This document shows, piece by piece, positions 8,690-37,410 of a stretch of DNA of 44,815 nucleotides; position 1 is the first letter of the stretch, and every line of letters begins with the position of its first letter. The translations under genes and the position numbers were made by a program. Under the pieces are notes generated by a model. The model searched no databases, had not been told where the DNA came from, and saw only the letters and a program-made list of their open reading frames with translations. This stretch comes from a virus (taxonomy: Duplodnaviria; Caudoviricetes). The stretch covers positions 1 through 44,815 of the IMG/VR virus record IMGVR_UViG_3300037722_000268; one strand, written 5' to 3'.

Positions 8690-10119
8690 CAGGCTCCCCC
8701 CTTCGAGACGCGCAGATTCGCGCCGACGATGACTCTCTTTACCGGGTCAGAGATGGTCGCTTCATAGATACGGTCCCGTGACTTCCCGAGGCGGTTCCAC
8801 AGCGCGCGGCGGCTGTACTCACCGATTTTCCCCATGCCCCGATAGTGGTAGTTGCTCCACGTATGCCCACCGTCGTCCGACCAGCGCAGCATGATCTGCG
8901 GGTCCGAGCCCTGGCCAGTAATCAGCCCGACGCCAGCCTCGATGTCGATTTGCAGGCGGTGGTGAAACAAGTTCGCGAGGTCGTCTTTATCCGAGGCGTG
9001 CCTGCACGCCCTCAGAGCGAGCAGCGGATCTCCGTTATCGCTGTAGGTATCAAGGTCCAGCTCGTACAGCATGCCGTTGTCGTAATCCCCGACGATGTGC
9101 TGGCGGTCGAAGTAGACATGGCAGTTGGAGCGATGACGGCCGAGATCGCCGCTACCAGTGTTCCGGTAGGCCCTCTCGTGCCAGAGATTCGTCGCAGCAT
9201 CGAAGACCCACGTTGCATTCGCGGTAGGAAAGATGAGCACGTAGAAGCTGTGCCCCTCGTCCTGGTAGGTGTAGGCGATAGCGTCGCTGATCGTGGCGTA
9301 GCCGCGAATAGCGAATTCCACCGCATGCGTGGACACTCGCTGTGGGGTGTATCCGTTCGCGCGCCATACAACGCCCGCGCCCTTGTCGTCGGCCCCGAGC
9401 CAGAAGATAGAGTTGTCCATCTTCGCTACGGCATGAGCCGCAGCACAACCATGCTCGATAAATGCGCCCTGCAGACGCTCCATCGGGAAATCGCTCGCGC
9501 CGGAGTTAAACCAGACCTCCGCGGTCCTAGAACCAAAAAGCCAAAGCTCGCGATGATCTACGATCAGGGACACTATGTTGTCCGGATCGCCCTCCGCAGA
9601 AGCGAAATCGAGCGCATCCCACGACGAGCCTTCGTTCAGGTCGGAGATATAGAATTTCTGGGTATCGAGGTCATTGACGATGAAATAGCCGTCAAGGAAT
9701 CCAACGCGCGTAGGGGCCGCAGGGAAGTCCGTATCGGTGATCATAGTGAACACATCCGTCGAGACCGTCAGGATGTAGCCGCTCACCCCGTCCACTATCA
9801 TCAACTGCGTGGTGTTCGCGGCGAGCGACACCTGGCCTGTGTACGTAGCTAGCGTTCCAAGCGTCGTCTCGGTGAAAGCCGTGTCGAACTTCGATAGCTT
9901 GTTCCCGCTCACCACGTACAGGAATGATCCAATGACGTACAGACCGCGCACTTCGGCTGCTGCCGTTGCCGTCGCCACCAACCGAAGCCCCGGCGTGCCG
10001 TATAGCGCCATGACTTGCTTACCGCTCTGGTCGATCTCCGGGTACAGGTTCACTAGCCGCTGTGCGTCGAAATTCACGCTGCGGACGGTATAGGCTGGAC
10101 CGACGAATGGGAAGTTCAT
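8689..10119 (-). CDS. packaged-DNA stabilization / tail hub protein, P22 gp10-like
   Basis: LDGYF, AEGDPDNIV, YQDEGHSFYVL, LRWSDDGGHTWS motifs; ATG 10119 overlaps the HNH stop. Confidence 0.9.
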   Translation of the reverse strand: MNFPFVGPAYTVRSVNFDAQRLVNLYPEIDQSGKQVMALYGTPGLRLVATATAAAEVRGLYVIGSFLYVVSGNKLSKFDTAFTETTLGTLATYTGQVSLAANTTQLMIVDGVSGYILTVSTDVFTMITDTDFPAAPTRVGFLDGYFIVNDLDTQKFYISDLNEGSSWDALDFASAEGDPDNIVSLIVDHRELWLFGSRTAEVWFNSGASDFPMERLQGAFIEHGCAAAHAVAKMDNSIFWLGADDKGAGVVWRANGYTPQRVSTHAVEFAIRGYATISDAIAYTYQDEGHSFYVLIFPTANATWVFDAATNLWHERAYRNTGSGDLGRHRSNCHVYFDRQHIVGDYDNGMLYELDLDTYSDNGDPLLALRACRHASDKDDLANLFHHRLQIDIEAGVGLITGQGSDPQIMLRWSDDGGHTWSNYHYRGMGKIGEYSRRALWNRLGKSRDRIYEATISDPVKRVIVGANLRVSKGGA

Positions 10120-11305: not shown

Positions 11306-11493
11306 TTCGGCACCTTGCGCGGCAGCCTGAGCGTCTTACCCTTGTGGGCTACAGGCTCCACGTACTCCTTGAAATCCGGACGCCTTGCGATGGCGAGCAG
11401 CGTCCCTTTATCGAGGATCGTGGTCGGCTGGCCCCACTTGAACACGTAGCCGCGAAACTCGGTGTATTGCCCTCCTACGTAGACATATTTCAT
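11302..11493 (-). CDS. 63-aa hypothetical protein (MKYVYVGG...)
   Basis: ATGA overlap with the upstream gene; C-terminal part of the 146-aa track ORF. Confidence 0.6.
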   Translation of the reverse strand: MKYVYVGGQYTEFRGYVFKWGQPTTILDKGTLLAIARRPDFKEYVEPVAHKGKTLRLPRKVPN

Positions 11494-12845
11494 GCCGCTT
11501 CCCTCTGCTTTTCGCTGTCTAGAAGATCGTTGAGATCCAGCCCGACGCGCTCTACAACCGGCCTCCAGGCGTCGCCGTCTCCGGCCGGCTGGCGATACAA
11601 GCGCACGGACCTGTACCAGCGCATCGGACCCTCTACACCGTAGCGCCACGCGGGCTTGTTCGGCACCATCACCCAGCACGGCACGCCAAGCGCCCCGGCG
11701 AGGTGAATCACCGATGTGCAGACCGAGATCACGAGATCGCACGACTTCACGAGCTGCGCCGTCTCGTAGTAGTCCTGCGCCTTCGCCGCCGGATGCGACC
11801 GGATCGAATACCCGCCAAGTCGGTTCGTCGTTTCGATGTCCGTCTCAGCGTCTTCGGTGTACTGCAGCGACACGAACTCGCAATCGTTGTTAAGGATCGA
11901 CCCCCACCACGCGAGCGGCACGGAGCGCACGACTACCCGGCCGTGCTTCTGCCCACCGGTCCATGAAATGCCTACGCGAAACTTCTCTCCACGCGGCGCG
12001 CTGTCGGACTTCAGGTAAGGCGTTCCTGGAAACAATTCCTTCGACCTGCGGTAGAAACGCCCGAGAGACCCGATAGAAATCCGCGCATCCGGCTTCTCGG
12101 CGTCCAGCCAGTCGATAGCATTCGACTCGCGCGACCCGTAGCACTTCAGGCCGGGGAACGAGTACTCGAACAGAGACTTCAGCCGCGTGTGGCACTCGAG
12201 CACCACATCGTTCGTCTTCATCAGATCCGGCAGCATCGAGGCGAACATGATTTCGTCGCCCAAGCCCTGCTCGCCGAATACCCATACCTTCTTGCCTGGC
12301 GTGCCATCCCAGGCCGGCACCAGTGACGCCCCACGGTCGATACGCATGGGCGGGACGGACTTGAATCCCCAGTCGTGCTCCTCCCAAGCGCTCTCCCACT
12401 CGCCCTTCTCAAGCAGCCCGATGGCCTTGTTCCAGTGCGCCATGCCGTTCTGCGGGTCCAGCTTCAGGGCGCGATTGGAGTGCTTGATCGCCTCGTCCGG
12501 CATGCCGATGTTGACAAACAGAGCGGCATAGTTCGTCAGCGTGTCGGCGGACGGGTCGTGCTTGATCGCCTCGGCGAACACTTCGCGGCACTTCTTGTAC
12601 TGCCCGGAATGCTTATAGGCGATGCCGAGATTGCACAGCACGTCGCCCTTCGGCTGCAGCTTGGCGGCGCGCTCGAGGAGAGAGATCGCAAGACCGAGTC
12701 TTTCGGTCTGCAGGTACAGCGTGCCCATCGTCGCGAGCAGGCCTGGGTTGTCGTGGTTCTGCGTGAGGAGCTGGTCGTAAAGCCGCTCCGCTTCGTCGTA
12801 TCTTTTCTCGAGATGAAGCTGGCTCGCTTGCTCGAATAGTTCCAT
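11490..12845 (-). CDS. TPR-repeat plus GT-B (GT9-like) glycosyltransferase, FlmG/FlbA-like architecture
   Basis: About five TPR repeats, then GEQGLGDEIMFA, VGISW, DLVISVCTSVIHLAGALG, WRY, WYRSVRLYRQ. Confidence 0.85.
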   Translation of the reverse strand: MELFEQASQLHLEKRYDEAERLYDQLLTQNHDNPGLLATMGTLYLQTERLGLAISLLERAAKLQPKGDVLCNLGIAYKHSGQYKKCREVFAEAIKHDPSADTLTNYAALFVNIGMPDEAIKHSNRALKLDPQNGMAHWNKAIGLLEKGEWESAWEEHDWGFKSVPPMRIDRGASLVPAWDGTPGKKVWVFGEQGLGDEIMFASMLPDLMKTNDVVLECHTRLKSLFEYSFPGLKCYGSRESNAIDWLDAEKPDARISIGSLGRFYRRSKELFPGTPYLKSDSAPRGEKFRVGISWTGGQKHGRVVVRSVPLAWWGSILNNDCEFVSLQYTEDAETDIETTNRLGGYSIRSHPAAKAQDYYETAQLVKSCDLVISVCTSVIHLAGALGVPCWVMVPNKPAWRYGVEGPMRWYRSVRLYRQPAGDGDAWRPVVERVGLDLNDLLDSEKQREAA

Positions 12846-12851
12846 CAGATC

Positions 12852-12875
12852 GGGGCCGAGCCGAAGCCCGGCCCC
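12852..12875 (-). promoter_or_regulatory. 10-bp C(UUCG)G hairpin between the SD and the ATG of the TPR-GT gene
   Basis: Minus strand AAAGGAAA-GGGGCCGGGC-TTCG-GCTCGGCCCC-GATCTG-ATG; the G-U pair works only on the minus strand. Confidence 0.7.
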
Positions 12876-12886
12876 TTTCCTTTCGG

Positions 12887-13309
12887 TTACACGATGTCCA
12901 TCGAGAAGATCGCCGTGAGATGGAATCCCCCGGTGATGGTCCCGACCGACACGGTGGACACTGCGATGTCGATCGTGTCATCGGTCGAATACACGTACGG
13001 CACGTTGCTCGCGTGCAGCGTGATCGTGCGGACCACCGTAGACGCGCTCGCCATGGTGCCGTGCGCGATGTAGCGGTCCTCGTCCACGCCGTCGCCGACA
13101 GCGCAAAGCGCGTCGCCCGAGCCACCGGACACCGCGAGGTAAACGACCGAGGCGCCTTTCGGAACCTTGATCATCTGGATAACGTCTCCTGCCGAGAGCG
13201 AAAGTCCCGCCCCCACCGAGTACGTCGCCGATACCGCCACCAGACCGACGCTCAGACCCTTCGGCGTAACTCCTTCGTCCGAGGTTTTGGTTGATTGACG
13301 AGTAGCCAT
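12887..13309 (-). CDS. capsid decoration/cement protein
   Basis: 140-aa beta-rich protein right after the capsid gene; LSAGDVIQMIKVPKGA motif; ATG at 13309. Confidence 0.65.
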   Translation of the reverse strand: MATRQSTKTSDEGVTPKGLSVGLVAVSATYSVGAGLSLSAGDVIQMIKVPKGASVVYLAVSGGSGDALCAVGDGVDEDRYIAHGTMASASTVVRTITLHASNVPYVYSTDDTIDIAVSTVSVGTITGGFHLTAIFSMDIV

Positions 13310-13320
13310 GTCATCCCCCT

Positions 13321-14415
13321 TTAGTCGGACGGCGCGGAAACGAACGCAGTCACGATCCCGTGATCCTTGGGAGTCGTGGTATCTGCGCCTGCGGCCGTGC
13401 CAAACCGAAGCTTTTCGATTCCGCGGATTTCCTGGACCCCGACCCCGTGAAGAAAGCCGTAGTCGTCGGTATCCGTGGTGCTCTTGGAACGCTGCGCCCA
13501 TGGAATGCCAACCGCTTGCGCACCGCACAGGTAGACCGGCTCGATGCGAACGCCAGTGGAGCTAAGCGAGGCTTCGAGTTGGGCGATCTCAGGGATTTCC
13601 CGCAGGATCATCCCGTCCCACACCAGCGAGTCGCCGGTAAAGAGCGGGTTATCCACGCCTCTGATGCGCGCGTCGCGGTTAGCGAGCGTGAGCACGTTGG
13701 TCGTCGGGTTGTCCTCGGTAAGGTCGCGCCAGCCGTTCGGTCCGATAAAGACGACGTACCATTCCTGGTCCATGGTCTTCACCATCACCGGCTTAACCTT
13801 CGGGCTCGCCTTCTGCGCCATCCGCTTCATCAGCGAAAGGATGTTCGGCGTGAGGGTCTCGCCCGCGCTTACGGCAAAGGTGCCCGTAGCGAACGTTGCG
13901 TTGAAGTTGCCGGTGTTATCGCCAAACAGCACCCGATCCTCGTTGTTCGCGGTCCAGGTGTTGCGCTGGGCAACGGTCGAGGATGTAAACGCCACGCCGT
14001 CGATCTGACCGAGCGCGGTGAGGATGCCGTCGCGAAGCTTCTTCTGCGCCCACTCTCGAAGCTGCACGCGACCAGCGTTGCGAAGGTCAATCGCGGACTT
14101 CTGCTCGTCCCAGTCGTCCACCGCAACCGCGTGACGCAGAACGTCAACGGATACGGCGTGCGAGCGGGAGTTCAGCCGCTCCTCGTTGCCCTTCAGGGTT
14201 GAATTGCCGGTGACGCCGTTGCCGACTAGCTCGTTGACGAGCGCGAAGGTGACGGTATCGCCTTTTTTCTTGGTAAGGTCTTCCTTGAGCTGGATGATTG
14301 CTGCTTCATCCGTGCCCATGTACCTCCGAAAACGGGACGCGCGAACGTAATCGCGAAAGAACTTGTCGTCCCAAATCTGAGGAGTTAGACCTTCTACTGC
14401 AAAGGTCTGAGCCAT
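13321..14415 (-). CDS. major capsid protein (DUF4043 / N4-gp56-like)
   Basis: YMGTDEAAIIQLKEDLTKKKGDTVTFAL, LKGNEERL, NPLFTG, LCGAQA; follows the scaffold gene. Confidence 0.9.
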   Translation of the reverse strand: MAQTFAVEGLTPQIWDDKFFRDYVRASRFRRYMGTDEAAIIQLKEDLTKKKGDTVTFALVNELVGNGVTGNSTLKGNEERLNSRSHAVSVDVLRHAVAVDDWDEQKSAIDLRNAGRVQLREWAQKKLRDGILTALGQIDGVAFTSSTVAQRNTWTANNEDRVLFGDNTGNFNATFATGTFAVSAGETLTPNILSLMKRMAQKASPKVKPVMVKTMDQEWYVVFIGPNGWRDLTEDNPTTNVLTLANRDARIRGVDNPLFTGDSLVWDGMILREIPEIAQLEASLSSTGVRIEPVYLCGAQAVGIPWAQRSKSTTDTDDYGFLHGVGVQEIRGIEKLRFGTAAGADTTTPKDHGIVTAFVSAPSD

Positions 14416-14454
14416 TCTGGCCTCCGAAATGGTTACGGGACTGCGCGCTTCGTT

Positions 14455-14554
14455 CGCCCGATAAACCCGGCGGCGGAACTACGCGCCCGTACCTCGGCGG
14501 CAGGACTGCTAGACCTCTACTGCGGATGCTTGACGCCCGAAAACCCGGCGGCGG
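14455..14554 (-). repeat. three copies of a GC-rich bulged-hairpin motif in the capsid-gene leader (fourth copy at 15540-15559)
   Basis: Plus-strand CGCCCG-N5-7-CGGCGGC at 14455, 14484, 14534 and 15540. Confidence 0.85.
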
Positions 14555-14601
14555 CTACTCCATAGTGTGCGGTTAATAGCACGAACGCACACCAATATCA
14601 A

Positions 14602-15519
14602 TCATGGCTCCAGGATGTTCTCCAGCGGCGTCGGCCCGTTCCACTGCGCGCGCTGCTGCGTCGATGTGCCGCGCGATTCCGTCAGGCTCGGAGGCAGTGC
14701 CGCGCGCTCACGCTCGAGCGCCTCCTGCTTCGCCTTGAACTCGGCCTCCACCTTTGCGCGCACGGCAACCTCGGTCTCCTTGCGCACCTTCTCTGTTATG
14801 GCGTCGATGCTCCCGGCCTGCTCGAGCAGCACATGGTTCTTGCCGATCTTGTAAGCGAACTCGGCCGGGTCAGGCGACGCAAGCCACTGCGCGTGCAGCC
14901 CAGGGGTCTGGTCCAGGATCTTCGCGAAGATCTCGATGTTCTGGTCGAAGTCCTGATACTTGCTTCTAGCAAGTTGCTCTGCAGTGGAAAGGCGCACGTT
15001 CAGGAGTTCGCCGCGGATGTCTTCCCTGGCCTTGGCGATATGCCCTTCGGGATCGTCCCAGAATCCCTTTGGCTGCTCTCCAGGCTGCTGCTGTGGCTGG
15101 CGTAGCTTCGACAGCTCGGCCTCAAGCTCCTGGCGCTTATGGCGCTCATCTTGTGCGGCGCGCAAATATGCCCGCTCCTTCTCGGTCATCTCCGGCTGTG
15201 CCGGGGCGGTGGCGGGCGCTGCCTGGGGCGGTGGCGCAGCAGCCTCCTCCTTAGGAGGCGGCGGCGGTGCGGCCTGTTCCTCTTTCTTGACGAACTGACC
15301 GGTTTCAGGGTCGCGCGCGAGGCCCTTGCCCTCGGCCTGCGCCTCCGCCTCCTTCTGGCGCCACTGCTCCTTGCGTGTCGGCTCGCGCTGCGGCGGCGCC
15401 TGCTCTTTCGGCGCCTCTGCCTTCGGTGCCTCGGCCGGGGGCGGTGCCTCGGCAGCGGGCACTTCAGGCGAAGATGTTTCGTCATCAAGAATGCTATTCA
15501 GGCTGCTTGGCTCTGCCAT
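14602..15519 (-). CDS. capsid scaffolding protein
   Basis: Pro/Ala/Glu-rich N-terminus, RDPETGQF motif, coiled coil, directly upstream of the capsid gene. Confidence 0.8.
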   Translation of the reverse strand: MAEPSSLNSILDDETSSPEVPAAEAPPPAEAPKAEAPKEQAPPQREPTRKEQWRQKEAEAQAEGKGLARDPETGQFVKKEEQAAPPPPPKEEAAAPPPQAAPATAPAQPEMTEKERAYLRAAQDERHKRQELEAELSKLRQPQQQPGEQPKGFWDDPEGHIAKAREDIRGELLNVRLSTAEQLARSKYQDFDQNIEIFAKILDQTPGLHAQWLASPDPAEFAYKIGKNHVLLEQAGSIDAITEKVRKETEVAVRAKVEAEFKAKQEALERERAALPPSLTESRGTSTQQRAQWNGPTPLENILEP

Positions 15520-16256
15520 GGCTGCTCTCCTTTACTGCTCGCCCGGTCCCCGGCGGCGGGAATCATTTTCTTGTACTTCCCCTGTACTGGATAAACGACC
15601 GGGCGAAGATCAGTACGCTCGGCAATTGCGACCATGTTCGCTTCCGTGCTCATATACCGAAACCTTCTGCAACTCGGCACGTCATCGATCTCTTTCCCGT
15701 CCCTGTCGCAGTTGCGCGCGATCATCTTGAGATCGAGCAATTTGAATCCTGGCTGCCCATAGAAGTCCACGTACCACGTCGGATTCATGTTGTAGAAGCC
15801 GTGATTGCCCCAGTTGAACGGGTTCTCGTGCAGGATCACGCCGCCCTTTGCAAGTAGGGATGCCATGTTTAGGGCTGCCTGCCCGATGTTGAAGCAGTGC
15901 TCGAGCGTGCCGATGTCGAGCACGAAATCGTAAGGCTGTCGGCCGAACGCCTCTACCGGGTAGTTGAGATCCACCACGATCTCGCCGCCGCGGTGCGCTA
16001 CTACGTCGTAGACATCCAGGCTCGCCCCTTGCAGCTCGAAGAAGGAATGCGCGTCCGGTATGGCGTGCGTGACGCCGTGCCACTTCCCGATGGCCTCGGA
16101 ATCCTCGCGATTCTTTATATTATAAATTTTCGCTCCAAGGATCGCCTCAAGTTCCTTGCGCGGGGCGATGATATCTGGGTATCCCATTGAAGCCACGCGC
16201 ACTCCGTGGCGCATCCGCGTGCACAGTTCCTGCATAAGGATCGTGCTAAGCCCCAT
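15498..16256 (-). CDS. class I SAM-dependent methyltransferase-like protein
   Basis: VDLNYP...YDFVLDIGTLEHCFN...LLAKGGVILH...HGFY pattern. Confidence 0.7.
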   Translation of the reverse strand: MGLSTILMQELCTRMRHGVRVASMGYPDIIAPRKELEAILGAKIYNIKNREDSEAIGKWHGVTHAIPDAHSFFELQGASLDVYDVVAHRGGEIVVDLNYPVEAFGRQPYDFVLDIGTLEHCFNIGQAALNMASLLAKGGVILHENPFNWGNHGFYNMNPTWYVDFYGQPGFKLLDLKMIARNCDRDGKEIDDVPSCRRFRYMSTEANMVAIAERTDLRPVVYPVQGKYKKMIPAAGDRASSKGEQPWQSQAA

Positions 16257-16410
16257 CTTCCACCTTCGCGCGCTTTATGAATTCGCGGTACAGACCGTGG
16301 TAGTCGTCATTCCTGCACAACTCGAATAACGTTTCGTCGAATTCGTATCCATGCTTCGACGTGTCTGGAATGGACGATGGCGGCTCAATTGGTACTTTCA
16401 CGTATTTCAT
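16246..16410 (-). CDS. 54-aa hypothetical protein (MKYVKVP...)
   Basis: ATGA overlap with the epimerase stop; GGAGGAG upstream. Confidence 0.55.
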   Translation of the reverse strand: MKYVKVPIEPPSSIPDTSKHGYEFDETLFELCRNDDYHGLYREFIKRAKVEDGA

Positions 16411-17252
16411 GCCGAGGCCCTCTCCTCCAATGAGAGTTTGTGACGATACCACTCCACCGTCTCGGCGAGCTTGTACGGCCACGGAATCGTGCACAGCGGC
16501 TTGGACGCCACAACGGTCGTGCCTTCCGGCTCGCCGATCCGCATCGGCTTGTAGACGATCCTGGACGTGGAGTGGCACGCCCTCACCACGTCCATCGCGG
16601 CATTCAGCACCGAGGTTGCCTTTCCGGTGCCGGCTTCCTTTACTTCGCCGTACGGCCCATCGATCGCGTCCACCAGCACGCGGGCGGTGTGCTCCAGGTA
16701 CACCAGATCGATCTTCTGCATCCCGTCGCCATTTACCTCGATGTCCATTCCGGTCAGGGCGCGGGAGACGAACGACGGCACGATCTTTCGCACCGTGCTC
16801 CTGCCGTGCGGCGCGCACATTTTCTGCCCTGGGCCATAGACGTGATACGCACGCACGACGGAGATCCGCTGCCCAGTCCACTGCGCTCGTGACAGAGCGA
16901 GATCGGTGATGCACTTCTTCGTGATCGCGTACGGGTTCGGCTGCCCTTCGTGTCCGGTCGCAATCTGCACCATCGGGATGCCGTACTCGGCAGCGGCATT
17001 CATGACGTTGAGCGCGCCCATGATGTTCACTTCTGCAGCGGTACTCTCCGCGCCCACCGTCTCAGCCGTTCCGAGCACGCCCGCTAGGTTGATGATCGCG
17101 TTGTGGCTCTCGTTAATGGCATCGTTCACGTCCCACTTGTTTCGCACGTCTTGGCGCCCGTCGAACGTACATGGGGTCATGCCGCGCGAGCGCAGTTCAG
17201 CGCATACAGCCTGACCTATGAATCCGGCAGAGCCGGTAACGAGAACTTTCAC
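16407..17252 (-). CDS. NAD-dependent NDP-sugar epimerase/dehydratase (extended SDR)
   Basis: VLVTGSAGFIG, INLAG, YxxxK (YAITK), VYGPGQ, DLVY; GTG start overlaps the upstream stop. Confidence 0.92.
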   Translation of the reverse strand: MKVLVTGSAGFIGQAVCAELRSRGMTPCTFDGRQDVRNKWDVNDAINESHNAIINLAGVLGTAETVGAESTAAEVNIMGALNVMNAAAEYGIPMVQIATGHEGQPNPYAITKKCITDLALSRAQWTGQRISVVRAYHVYGPGQKMCAPHGRSTVRKIVPSFVSRALTGMDIEVNGDGMQKIDLVYLEHTARVLVDAIDGPYGEVKEAGTGKATSVLNAAMDVVRACHSTSRIVYKPMRIGEPEGTTVVASKPLCTIPWPYKLAETVEWYRHKLSLEERASA

Positions 17253-17905
17253 GCTGCCTCCTTTTTCTTCGCGAATTTGTGCAGCATCCATTGCTTGCGC
17301 TTTCCTTTCATGTGCACGATGTACTTCTGCGATACGTCCTCGTCAATCCGATTCGGCGAGTAGTTGTACTCGTCGCACGTCAGCTCGAGCACCTTATATT
17401 TACCGGACTCCGCTACGACCTTTATCGCCACCTGATCGCCGAACCAGTGTTTCAACTTCTCGGATAGCGTGTTGCAGTGCGCGTACACGTCTTCCCAGAA
17501 CTCCCTGCTACGCGAGAACATCACTCCGGAGTTGAACGGCATGTCCGGCACGATGTCCTTGCCGTCTACAAGAATCGGCCCGCGCCGTCGCGTAAGCGCC
17601 ACATCGAACGGCTGATCGAAAACGCCGCTCGTATCTCGTTGCACCACGGCGTCTGTATCGATAAACATCGCGTCGCCTTCAGGGAAGTGCCTGAGGTGGT
17701 CCAGCCGGTAGTGCATGATCCACGGTGCCATGATCTCGCGGCGGATTACCGTGTCTACGCCTCGCACCTTCGGCGTACTCGGATCTGCCATGTGCACGAT
17801 TTCAGCGTTAGGCATGGCCGCTTTGACGGAGCGCACCATGATCTCGGCGAGCGCTCGAGCCTCCGGTTGCCCCTGCAAATCCAAGTGCAGGAATCCGACT
17901 CTCAT
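17249..17905 (-). CDS. GT-A fold glycosyltransferase (GT8/GT77-like)
   Basis: FIDTD (DxD), FNSGVMF, GDQ, YN, IVHMKG motifs. Confidence 0.85.
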   Translation of the reverse strand: MRVGFLHLDLQGQPEARALAEIMVRSVKAAMPNAEIVHMADPSTPKVRGVDTVIRREIMAPWIMHYRLDHLRHFPEGDAMFIDTDAVVQRDTSGVFDQPFDVALTRRRGPILVDGKDIVPDMPFNSGVMFSRSREFWEDVYAHCNTLSEKLKHWFGDQVAIKVVAESGKYKVLELTCDEYNYSPNRIDEDVSQKYIVHMKGKRKQWMLHKFAKKKEAA

Positions 17906-32923: not shown

Positions 32924-33163
32924 TTACTTCCAGTTCCCGCCGTTGATGTAGGCGGCCATGCGCATCGCCTCGGCCCTTGCAGCCTTGTCAGCTTTCAGCC
33001 CGGTCAGTGGTTCCAGCTCGAGCTGCCATGGACCTGGGATTCGATCCCGGAATTTCCACTGGTGGACGGTCTGCTTCTTGACAGCCTTTTTTCTGTTTTT
33101 GCTCAGTGCCTTGGCGATCTTCGAGGAGCCGCCCAGGACGCGCTCAACTTGTCGGTATTTCAC
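32924..33163 (-). CDS. cro: Cro-like HTH repressor
   Basis: LGGSSKIAKAL...QTVHQWK...IP pattern; divergent from the cI-like gene; GTG start at 33163. Confidence 0.75.
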   Translation of the reverse strand: MKYRQVERVLGGSSKIAKALSKNRKKAVKKQTVHQWKFRDRIPGPWQLELEPLTGLKADKAARAEAMRMAAYINGGNWK

Positions 33164-33280
33164 CCGCGAGAGTATCCACGATGCCGGTCCGGTAGTCAAC
33201 GATCATGGACTAGCCATGTAGGTGATTGAACGATAGACAAAAATCGGGTAGCCTGTAAACTACTGTTGACCACTAGTCAA
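33164..33280. promoter_or_regulatory. PR-like promoter and operators
   Basis: Minus strand TTGACT-17 nt-GATACT; operator AGTCAAC-N4-ATGGACT at 33194-33211; related TGTAAAC-N4-GTTGACC at 33254-33271. Confidence 0.8.
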
Positions 33281-33298: not shown

Positions 33299-33790
33299 AT
33301 GAGTACATTTGTGGAGAGACTCCTGCAGGCCGCACGCCATGCAGGAGTCGAGGAAACACAGAAAGCGATTGCCGCATCCCTTGGGCTTAAAAAGCAGACG
33401 GTAAATCGCTGGTTTAACGAGGGCGGCGAGCCGAGCGCCGACAACCTGCTCGACATTGAGGCGAAGTGGGGCGTCGACGGGAAGTGGCTGAAGAAGGGAG
33501 AGGGCGAGATGGTGCCGACCATCTCCGTACTCTCTCCAGACGAGCGCGCCCTTCTTAAGGACTACCGCAAGGCGCTTCCGCGGGTGCGCGATGTGATTCG
33601 AAACATGGCTCGAGCCGCCAGGAAATCGGTTGTTACGATCGCGGCGCTGATACCGCCATTGCTTGTGCCGCAGCCATCGGACGCAGGCGTTTTACATAAA
33701 ATTTATTATATCCATCAACAGGTTACACATTGTGCCCAAAACGTGCTTCGCTGGCTGATGGGCGCCGTACCACAAATCAAGTTTTCCTGA
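33299..33790 (+). CDS. CI-like XRE HTH repressor with no S24 peptidase domain
   Basis: TQKAIAASLGLKKQTVNRW, GVDGKWLKKGEGEM; SD GAGGTG before ATG 33299. Confidence 0.85.
   Translation: MSTFVERLLQAARHAGVEETQKAIAASLGLKKQTVNRWFNEGGEPSADNLLDIEAKWGVDGKWLKKGEGEMVPTISVLSPDERALLKDYRKALPRVRDVIRNMARAARKSVVTIAALIPPLLVPQPSDAGVLHKIYYIHQQVTHCAQNVLRWLMGAVPQIKFS
33689..33716 (-). other. dif/Xer-like 11-6-11 recombination site inside the repressor gene (candidate attP or resolution site)
   Basis: Minus strand GATGGATATAA-TAAATT-TTATGTAAAAC versus E. coli dif GGTGCGCATAA-TGTATA-TTATGTTAAAT (arms 7/11 and 9/11). Confidence 0.55.
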
Positions 33791-33879
33791 CGGGCAAAAG
33801 TCACACTCGGCGTCAACTTGGGACGCCGGGATAAAGCGCACGGAGTGAATTTTGCGCCCGGCGGTGTATTACAGGAACA

Positions 33880-34107
33880 ATGGCCCCGGACTCGGCTTCG
33901 CTCGTCGCCGAGATTCTGAACGCCGGATACATGGTGCGGCACTACGCGCGCGGCGGCAGGACCTCGATCGGGCGCACCCTGCGCCAGCAGGCGATCCTGC
34001 GCATGGGCCTCACCGTGCGCGACGCCTTCAACAAGTCAGATGATTTCGAAGCACTTTTAGCCGCCGTCGCGGACGGCCTGCGCCCGCGGGACGCTCCGCC
34101 GTTCTAG
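33880..34107 (+). CDS. hypothetical protein downstream of the repressor
   Basis: SD AGGAA, ATG start. Confidence 0.5.
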   Translation: MAPDSASLVAEILNAGYMVRHYARGGRTSIGRTLRQQAILRMGLTVRDAFNKSDDFEALLAAVADGLRPRDAPPF

Positions 34108-36096: not shown

Positions 36097-36496
36097 ACGG
36101 ACCGACTACCGCGCGATGTACGGCAAGGATTACGTGGGCGCCTGGGACATCCCAGACGGCAAAGACGTGACGCTCACCATTACCGCAGTGAAGGGCGGCG
36201 AGCTGACATCGATCGGCGGCCGGAAGTCGAAGAAGCCGCTGCTGTCCTTCAAGGGCACGGAGAAGAAGCTCGCCCTCAATGCAACGAACGGCAAGACCAT
36301 CGCCAGCATGTACGGGAAGTTCGTCGAGGAGTGGGTCGGGAAAAAGATCGCGATCTACAAGTCCACGACGCGCTCCCCGGAAGGCGATGGCGAAGTCGAT
36401 TGTGTTCGCGTAAGACCGCGGGTGCCTGCAGGAGCGGGTGCAACCCTCCCCCCCGATCCCGCCCTGCAGCCGCCCGCGGAGGAGGCACAGACATGA
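36086..36496 (+). CDS. conserved phage recombination-module protein, possibly ssDNA-binding
   Basis: DVTLTITAV...KKLALNATN...WVGKKIAIY; follows the exonuclease. Confidence 0.6.
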   Translation: MGTERTDYRAMYGKDYVGAWDIPDGKDVTLTITAVKGGELTSIGGRKSKKPLLSFKGTEKKLALNATNGKTIASMYGKFVEEWVGKKIAIYKSTTRSPEGDGEVDCVRVRPRVPAGAGATLPPDPALQPPAEEAQT

Positions 36497-37410
36497 CCGA
36501 ACCGACGCTCGAAGACTTCACGCCCAACACCGTCGCCTGGCTGATCCAGAAGCGCATCGACGAGTCGCGCACGCCAGGCGCACGCAAGATGGGCTCGAGC
36601 CAGGGCTACGTGCTGCGCGGCCTGCAGCGCGACAAGATCATCGCAGGCAAGCTCAACACCGCGCTCAAGCCCATCGACTTCATCGAGTGCTGCCGGGCCT
36701 ACCGCGCCAAGGGCCTGCTGCCGCAGACCATCAACCAGCGCATGTCGTTCCTCGCCGGGGTGCTGAAACACGCGGCCGAGATATGGGACATGCCAGACAC
36801 TGGCATCGTCGCCTATCAGAAGTCGAAGCCGCAGCTCAAGAAAGAGCAACTGATCGGCAAGTCGCCGGGTCGCACCCGCCGCCCGACGCAGGACGAGCTG
36901 GACCGGCTGCTCGCCTACTTCGATGAGCGCAAGCGCATGACGATCCCGATGCGCGCGATCGTGGAGTTCTCGGTGCTCTCGGCCAGGCGCATCAGCGAGA
37001 CCTGCCGGCTGCGCTGGGAGGACATCGACGAGAAGAAGCGTACCTGCATGGTGCGCGACCTGAAGAACCCAGCCGGCAAAGGATTCGATGACGAGTTCCC
37101 GCTGCTCGGGCGCGCGTGGGAGATCGTTCAGGCGCAGCCGCGGACCTGCGATCGGATCTTCCCGTACAACGCGAAGTCCTGCTCGCTCGCCTACACCAGG
37201 GCGAAGCAGGCGCTCAGCATCAATGGGCTGCGGCTGCACGACAACCGCCGAGAAGCGATCTCGAGGCTGTTCGAGCAGGGCTTCAACGTGCCCGAGGCGC
37301 AGAAGCTATCGCTGCACCGGAATGCGACGGTGCTGCTGAAGAACTACACGTCGCTCAAGCCCGAAGATTTGCACCGCGGCCCGGCGGCGAAACGGCATGC
37401 ACATGGCTAA
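36493..37410 (+). CDS. int: tyrosine recombinase / integrase
   Basis: Catalytic set R (SARRISE), K (DLKNP), HxxR (LHDNRR), H (SLHRN), Y (LKNY); ATG 36493. Confidence 0.92.
   Translation: MTEPTLEDFTPNTVAWLIQKRIDESRTPGARKMGSSQGYVLRGLQRDKIIAGKLNTALKPIDFIECCRAYRAKGLLPQTINQRMSFLAGVLKHAAEIWDMPDTGIVAYQKSKPQLKKEQLIGKSPGRTRRPTQDELDRLLAYFDERKRMTIPMRAIVEFSVLSARRISETCRLRWEDIDEKKRTCMVRDLKNPAGKGFDDEFPLLGRAWEIVQAQPRTCDRIFPYNAKSCSLAYTRAKQALSINGLRLHDNRREAISRLFEQGFNVPEAQKLSLHRNATVLLKNYTSLKPEDLHRGPAAKRHAHG

Follow-up and report, generated by a model that had tools for sequence, protein, structure and literature searches.

Filamentous phages, other non-tailed phages and a few islands have been described to integrate by exploiting the host XerC and XerD recombinases. 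The locus considered here raises the question of whether a tailed phage does the same, as the gene of its helix-turn-helix (HTH) repressor contains, near the 3' end, an AT-rich site resembling host dif. The window (the whole stretch of DNA that was analysed, 44,815 nt) is the whole circular genome of a podovirus of ~44.7 kb, with a 127-nt end overlap and direct terminal repeats.

Genome and setting of the locus

The structural genes are P22-like, with Pfam or PHROG matches to portal, terminase, capsid, head-closure and DNA-ejection proteins, and the other genes include those of a primase-polymerase, a Cro-like protein and a divergent HTH repressor. Sigma-70-like promoters are found on both strands in 33171-33261, and no tRNA was found in the window. 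Genes for a TPR protein, a methyltransferase-like protein and an NAD-dependent epimerase are located amid the head genes (11490-17291), which suggests a sugar modification of the virion or of the DNA; the TPR protein is common to the window phage and to a related 46-kb genome (G001). The features of the switch region are:

32924-33199, minus strand: Cro-like gene, divergent from the repressor gene (weak P22_Cro/YdaS Pfam and phrog_409 matches)
33299-33790, plus strand: HTH repressor gene, 163 aa, with the dif-derived element in its 3' end (HTH_3, E 3e-7; the family profile matches RSS0 ORF13)

A two-piece dif-derived element

33689-33699, minus strand: XerD-type arm (plus strand GTTTTACATAA), 24 nt away from the host-type centre; matches the RSS0 attP and prophage-border arms
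33700-33716, minus strand: rest of site 1, a 6-bp AT-rich centre and a weak XerC-like arm, not kept in the DNA loci
33724-33740, minus strand: site 2, host-type centre TACACA and XerC-type arm, likely the crossover core (prophage-border matches, G010 repeat)

The preliminary description of this DNA had reported an 11-6-11 site in an AT-rich island of the repressor ORF, and both were recovered: the site occupies 33689-33716 (plus strand GTTTTACATAA AATTTA TTATATCCATC), inside the ORF 33299-33790, and no 30-mer of the genome has a lower GC content than the one that begins with it (17%). Its arms score, as reported, 7/11 and 9/11 to the XerC and XerD arms of E. coli dif, this being the best such match of the genome, and its inner pattern occurs once against 0.01 expected from shuffles. 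A promoter was rejected as the cause of the island, where there is no sigma-70 match. A skew of the KOPS motif (6 versus 19, p 0.015) toward the predicted dif was likewise discarded, control motifs with the same letters being equally skewed.

The second dif-like half that had been suspected beside this site is present at 33724-33740 (TACACA TTGTGCCCAAA), the 11 bp on its XerD side being degenerate. An arm and a half-site within 60 nt were found in 0 of 3000 shuffles and at 0 of 80 unrelated phage HTH loci, both counts being post hoc in that the motif was defined from the repressor family itself. The 11-6-11 site is half of a larger split element. Its parts are not those first emphasised: conservation is lowest in the supposed XerC arm (33706-33716), and the conserved pieces are the XerD arm and the second half-site.

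An imperfect hairpin closed by CGTTTT/AAAACG had also been proposed for the region. This pair does occur in the minimum-energy fold, but the stability of the fold is no better than that of shuffled sequences (z 0.66 and -0.16). A single-stranded hairpin of the CTX type, folding both pieces into a recombination substrate, is extremely improbable: a stem can be drawn around the window site, but none of 8 loci beats its shuffles on either strand (z -0.98 to +1.96), the arm-to-arm pairing probability is at most 0.15, the phage is dsDNA and there is no inverted second site.

Conservation of the element among related loci

When metagenome and viral contigs were scanned, seven different related loci emerged, namely L089 (identical to L093), L090 (L099), L091 (L096-L098), L094, L104, L105 and L109; two of the nine metagenome matches (L092, L095) were judged to be chance and dropped. 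Where contigs were long enough, they carried cro-like genes and genes for replication and recombination that are those of tailed dsDNA phages, as judged by eye from the translations. Conservation at the nucleotide level had been named as a check of the initial proposal, and the dif-derived site is kept in all seven related loci, in split form in six and reversed in one.

The layout of the six split loci is that of the window (XerD-type arm, gap, TACACA-TTG), with gaps, over the window and the six loci, of 24, 28, 29, 5, 6, 28 and 40 nt. Among these seven split-form loci, the XerD arm TTTACATAA is exact in five and varied in two, TACACATTG is exact in six and is read in frames 0, 1 and 2, and the host-type centre TACACA is kept in six, while the centre of site 1 varies. 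The loci with gaps of 5-6 nt are without the XerC arm of site 1. In the reversed locus (L104), the centre and the XerD arm are contiguous.

At the protein level, a family of 51 members was drawn from 130 proteins of 110-230 aa, membership being set by the hydrophobic segment. A dif half-site is encodable in the tails of 35 of the 51, against 2.35 for shuffled tails, 0/51 for the N-terminal parts of the same family and 8/79 for other proteins, an enrichment whose size is flattered by motifs picked after viewing the tails, although no open frame of any motif was left out. At +3, where an inner XerC-like arm would follow after 6 bp, 15 of 32 H[NK] tails have Tyr or Cys, against a background of 0.08. 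Gaps range from 10 to 55 nt across 29 tails; this spread led to the rejection of an exact tandem duplication of the 28-bp dif, near which length only some gaps fall.

Orientation of the site was mapped, using labels from looser peptide patterns, on a tree built from the repressor without its tail. It is scattered over the tree, the 11 reversed rows needing 10 changes (shuffled mean 10.1), of which at least 8 are forced by well-supported branches; this is the pattern to be expected if the DNA site has been replaced repeatedly. Loci, frames and tails together place the dif-derived site under DNA-level selection across this repressor family of tailed phages.

Two relatives (L107 at 1531-1590 and L108 at 793-850) have lost by deletion the repressor, the dif element and the first ~19 codons of the small (75-aa) gene that lies downstream, and cro is found beside the remnant. 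G001 carries, in addition to its repressor site, a second dif-like site (L103, 34243-34262), located between terminase-like and replication genes; its XerD arm is canonical and its centre is not of the host type.

Selection on the DNA could also reflect the resolution by XerCD of phage circles (a plasmid-like prophage or replication multimers) through site 1, whose non-host centre would bar recombination with the chromosome. This is unlikely. The near-perfect XerD arm is consistent with it, as are the inner XerC-like arm placed after exactly 6 bp in the 15 tails mentioned above, the unintegrated state of every assembly seen and the further site of G001, with its non-host centre near terminase genes. 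It leaves unexplained, however, why TACACA should be kept in 6 of the 7 split-form loci and the centre of site 1 be free to vary, and why loci with 5-6 nt gaps should do without the site-1 XerC arm; moreover, no partition protein was found among the 46 phage proteins scanned (a subset of the ORFs).

Probable position of the crossover

The uninterrupted form (arm, TACACA and TTG) was searched for and returned 13 viral loci. Nine of them, in AT-rich contexts, were judged to be chance and dropped; the other four are GC-rich and mark the borders of prophages of filamentous type, recognised by inspection from Zot-like and Rep-like ORFs, and two of the records with such border loci are classed as provirus. 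In G010, the 17-base stretch that begins with TACACA occurs as a direct repeat, at 9727 and at 15956; the XerD arm is intact at one end and degenerate at the other. This repeat and the prophage borders indicate that TACACA followed by TTG is a real dif centre with its XerC-type arm, used as a crossover core. The filamentous prophage of G010 (L131, 1-15972), located between its two dif-like repeats, adjoins another element, the ORFs of which resemble a tailless (double jelly-roll) phage by inspection; this is possibly a tandem array at dif outside Vibrio.

When compared with the four border sites, the window has an XerD arm matching theirs at 9-10/11 and a site-2 centre identical to theirs (6/6), the centre of site 1 matching at 2/6 only. 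The XerC-type arm of site 2 matches the known arms of these borders at only 4-6/11 and the XerD side of site 2 at 4-5/11, the borders being from other hosts and the dif of the phage's own host possibly differing from theirs.

The reading that we favour, with a probability of about 0.58, is that the two-piece dif-derived site is the attP of a family of tailed phages that integrate at host dif through XerC and XerD, with the crossover probably at TACACA (33724-33729). Site 2 would then serve as a dsDNA attP of the TLC/XacF1 type, right-armed and degenerate on its XerD side, and the crossover would leave a working dif at one junction. As 141 repressor residues precede the site-2 core and ~20 follow it, the last ~20 residues, a conserved cationic helix, would be swapped for residues encoded by the host. 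The replacement of the repressor tail that had been put forward initially thus retains its place, inside the 3' end of the gene, but not its extent, which would be ~20 residues at TACACA and not 25-30. The 75-aa gene would be moved to the far end of the prophage, off the promoter of the repressor, and this move could give integration a direction. The perfect XerD arm that is displaced is putatively an extra XerD-binding site or a second, left-armed site; to our knowledge, no described Xer geometry fits a split site with a gap of 5-55 nt.

Tyrosine recombinase of the phage

36493-37410, plus strand: tyrosine recombinase, 305 aa, mEp460/Rci-like (PF00589), probably outside the dif module

The recombinase has its catalytic motifs, is 40-42% identical to mEp460-type integrases and is shorter than these by ~57 N-terminal residues. 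Its gene is tightly packed in the early operon with no intergenic att alongside, and a dusA-type att is not indicated, no dusA piece being found nearby. A second N-terminally shortened mEp460-like recombinase was found in L081 (5992-6924); like that of the window, it sits right after recombination genes, with no att space beside it.

The complete phage G002 has a 67%-identical recombinase and no dif-like site. Conversely, the site is kept in G001 (46 kb, 142-nt end overlap; CheckV 62%) and in G003 (40.6 kb, partial), in both of which no tyrosine or serine recombinase was detected. Over these few genomes, site and enzyme are therefore uncoupled, which goes against one alternative of the preliminary description, namely that the phage's own enzyme uses this site as its core site. 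Although the recombinase is short (305 aa), in the manner of simple two-domain recombinases, this uncoupling, and arms that follow known variants of the XerD arm, make the alternative very unlikely.

The presence of an enzyme also invites the explanation that the module works in the family at large but is bypassed, or in decay, in the window phage, which would integrate elsewhere by its own recombinase. The distance of the window arms C1 and C2 from the consensus is in line with this, as are the natural deletions of repressor and site in L107 and L108. We nevertheless find it quite unlikely, since the XerD arm and the centre are kept in the window as well as in recombinase-free relatives, and since the recombinase, enclosed in the early operon, has neither an att beside it nor the N-terminal part of the mEp460 integrase nor a dusA piece.

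The proposal of a tailed IMEX is borne out in part only. The conserved dif-derived site, the layout resembling those of RSS0 and Cf1c and the recombinase-free relatives speak for it; against it stand the integrase of the window phage, whose PF00589 domain is at variance with the IMEX feature of having no integrase of its own, and the absence of an observed junction.

Search for integrated copies

Prophage junctions were searched for, and two scans of 185,579 species genomes (GTDB) found neither the repressor nor the 75-aa gene. Among the 13 viral loci with the contiguous form, the pattern expected of a junction, none had the 75-aa gene beside it. In a sediment-metagenome run (X1), which contains the genome in full and may be its source, the region is in one unbroken contig with no loose end at the site, contigs being prone to drop rare forms; two further runs (X2, X3) contain small shares of the phage only and leave the site uncovered. 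A canonical host XerC read-through was found in no tail among 167 proteins, a weak result in that a host arm of the TTGTCG type would escape it. The hosts appear to be absent from the collections searched.

Repressor protein and its putatively replaceable tail

33605-33685, plus strand: signal-peptide-like segment, residues 103-129, basic, with 14 uncharged hydrophobic residues and an S-D-A motif; processing predicted
33728-33790, plus strand: predicted post-crossover repressor tail, ~20 aa, cationic amphipathic, 'RWL' (Trp and charge conserved in family tails)

A structure model of the repressor was obtained with pLDDT 86 and pTM 0.56. Sec signal peptides combine a basic n-region, an uncharged hydrophobic h-region and small residues at -3 and -1 for signal peptidase I. 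Among 54 family members chosen by eye for their hydrophobic segment (alignment A2), a basic n-region is found in 51, an uncharged core in 49 and an [AS]xA motif in 41, the latter against 14.2 in shuffles and 8.1 in N-terminal windows. The segment is internal and short, and in the model it forms one long helix together with the residues ahead of it, of which it is the end; this hydrophobic stretch may alternatively be a dimerisation helix. Among the open-access papers listed, none dealt with a signal-peptide-like segment of such repressors.

In the tail, Trp occurs within 12 aa after the core in 24 of 34 cases (25% expected), whatever the frame of the core; the net charge is at least +2 in 29/34, and the hydrophobic moment exceeds that of shuffles in 25/34. 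Over the seven DNA loci of split form, each of the three frames is used to read the core, but the RWL-type motif stays in that of the repressor, so that selection acts on the DNA site and, separately, on the peptide that follows it. This separate selection is the best hint that the swap of the tail could matter. No ssrA-like degron is evident in the tails by inspection.

Viral scans with the repressor alone returned nothing or generic HTH genes, and annotated phages and plasmids gave only HTH-level matches to it. From the last codons of the repressor to the small gene downstream (33774-33835), 62 bases containing an inverted repeat are identical in a contig of another run, which may explain the shared -FS/-VS ends of the repressors. 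No conserved RNA structure was found between the repressor and the small gene in 5 loci.

Conserved gene downstream of the repressor

33880-34107, plus strand: 75-aa three-helix protein of no known family, directly downstream of the repressor in 7/7 related loci

The order cro, repressor (with the site) and 75-aa gene is fixed in the related loci, and the 75-aa gene is also located behind HTH domains of other subtypes (L104, L105, L109). The protein has 504 homologues and is modelled as three helices (pLDDT 88); family and fold searches returned generic helical bundles only, and no relative was found in annotated phages and plasmids. DUF3653 is matched by none of 120 members of the family, and comparison with Cf1c cp7 gave an hhalign probability of 0.2%, so that the protein is not DUF3653/XafT. 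From its position, it is a candidate accessory factor or Xer activator.

These observations can be combined into a broader and tentative proposal, unlikely when taken as a whole, according to which widespread tailed phages of the lambdoid kind, infecting uncultured bacteria of soil and groundwater, would lysogenise at dif by a three-part switch. Its parts would be the split dif site, a new (non-DUF3653) Xer-activating protein cut off from its promoter by integration, and membrane tethering or signal-peptidase processing of the repressor, set by the replaceable cationic tail. If the favoured reading, integration of tailed phages at dif through this module, is right, many tailed phages regarded as 'integrase-less' would be temperate and would share a lysogeny cassette with inoviruses. 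The 75-aa family, with its 500+ members, is a candidate new family of XerD activators. Variants that occur in nature, with either orientation, gaps from 5 to 55 nt or deletions, are suited to testing whether the cut at dif alters repressor activity.

Comparison with known systems

Among the open-access papers listed, none deals with a tailed phage carrying this module. The closest counterparts of the module are in inoviruses. The attP of the Ralstonia inovirus RSS0 is mapped to dif and integration shortens ORF13 by 26 aa, with an effect that is hypothesised only (PMC3816273). RSS0 ORF13 has the same succession of HTH, hydrophobic segment, AxA motif and dif-encoded tail, and matches the family profile over the HTH and over the hydrophobic-to-tail part (E 3.7e-7; hhalign 84.6%); the XerD arm of the RSS0 attP is that of the window at 10/11, and variants without repressor and site exist in both cases (RSS1 versus RSS0, and L107 and L108 here). 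RSS0 is, however, a filamentous phage with ssDNA, and its site is contiguous and reversed (left-armed), the junctions being mapped, whereas the window phage is lambdoid and tailed, with a cro/cI switch and a split site for which no junction was found.

The Xanthomonas inoviruses offer a second counterpart, the attP of XacF1 being inside ORF12 (PMC4076744). In Cf1c cp8, the centre and the XerC arm are on the coding strand after a hydrophobic helix, with a degenerate XerD side. Site 2 has the place and the orientation of the Cf1c attP core, and a small gene is directly downstream in both, although that of Cf1c is DUF3653-like (E 4.5e-4, under the cut-off) and the 75-aa gene is unrelated to it. 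Cf1c, which is non-tailed, has no displaced XerD arm (2/11). Judged on these sequence likenesses, the repressor-site module is homologous to the repressor-attP module of RSS0 and Cf1c.

Published work describes the types of IMEX (PMC5357621), the XafT/DUF3653 accessory gene of TLC-type IMEXs (PMC6744903) and modules common to inoviruses and double jelly-roll phages, among them dif-type Vibrio prophages (PMC12715192); longer centres are frequent in phage dif-like sites (PMC3025954). TLC-type IMEXs and Vibrio double jelly-roll prophages resemble the window phage, on the favoured reading of its site, by a dsDNA attP with one degenerate arm, and by a module of repressor, small accessory gene and dif-like attP that recurs across unrelated phage groups; they differ from it in being non-tailed and integrase-less, with an attP between genes and a DUF3653/XafT accessory gene. 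Mycobacteriophage BPs has its attP inside the repressor gene; its own integrase serves for integration, which removes an ssrA-like tag from the repressor (PMC4557955). Like the window phage, BPs is a tailed phage, and the two would share the place of the attP and a repressor C-terminus changed by integration, both of which are predictions for the window phage; the latter is set apart by a dif-like site and by a cationic amphipathic repressor tail, with no evident ssrA-like end, behind a signal-peptide-like segment.
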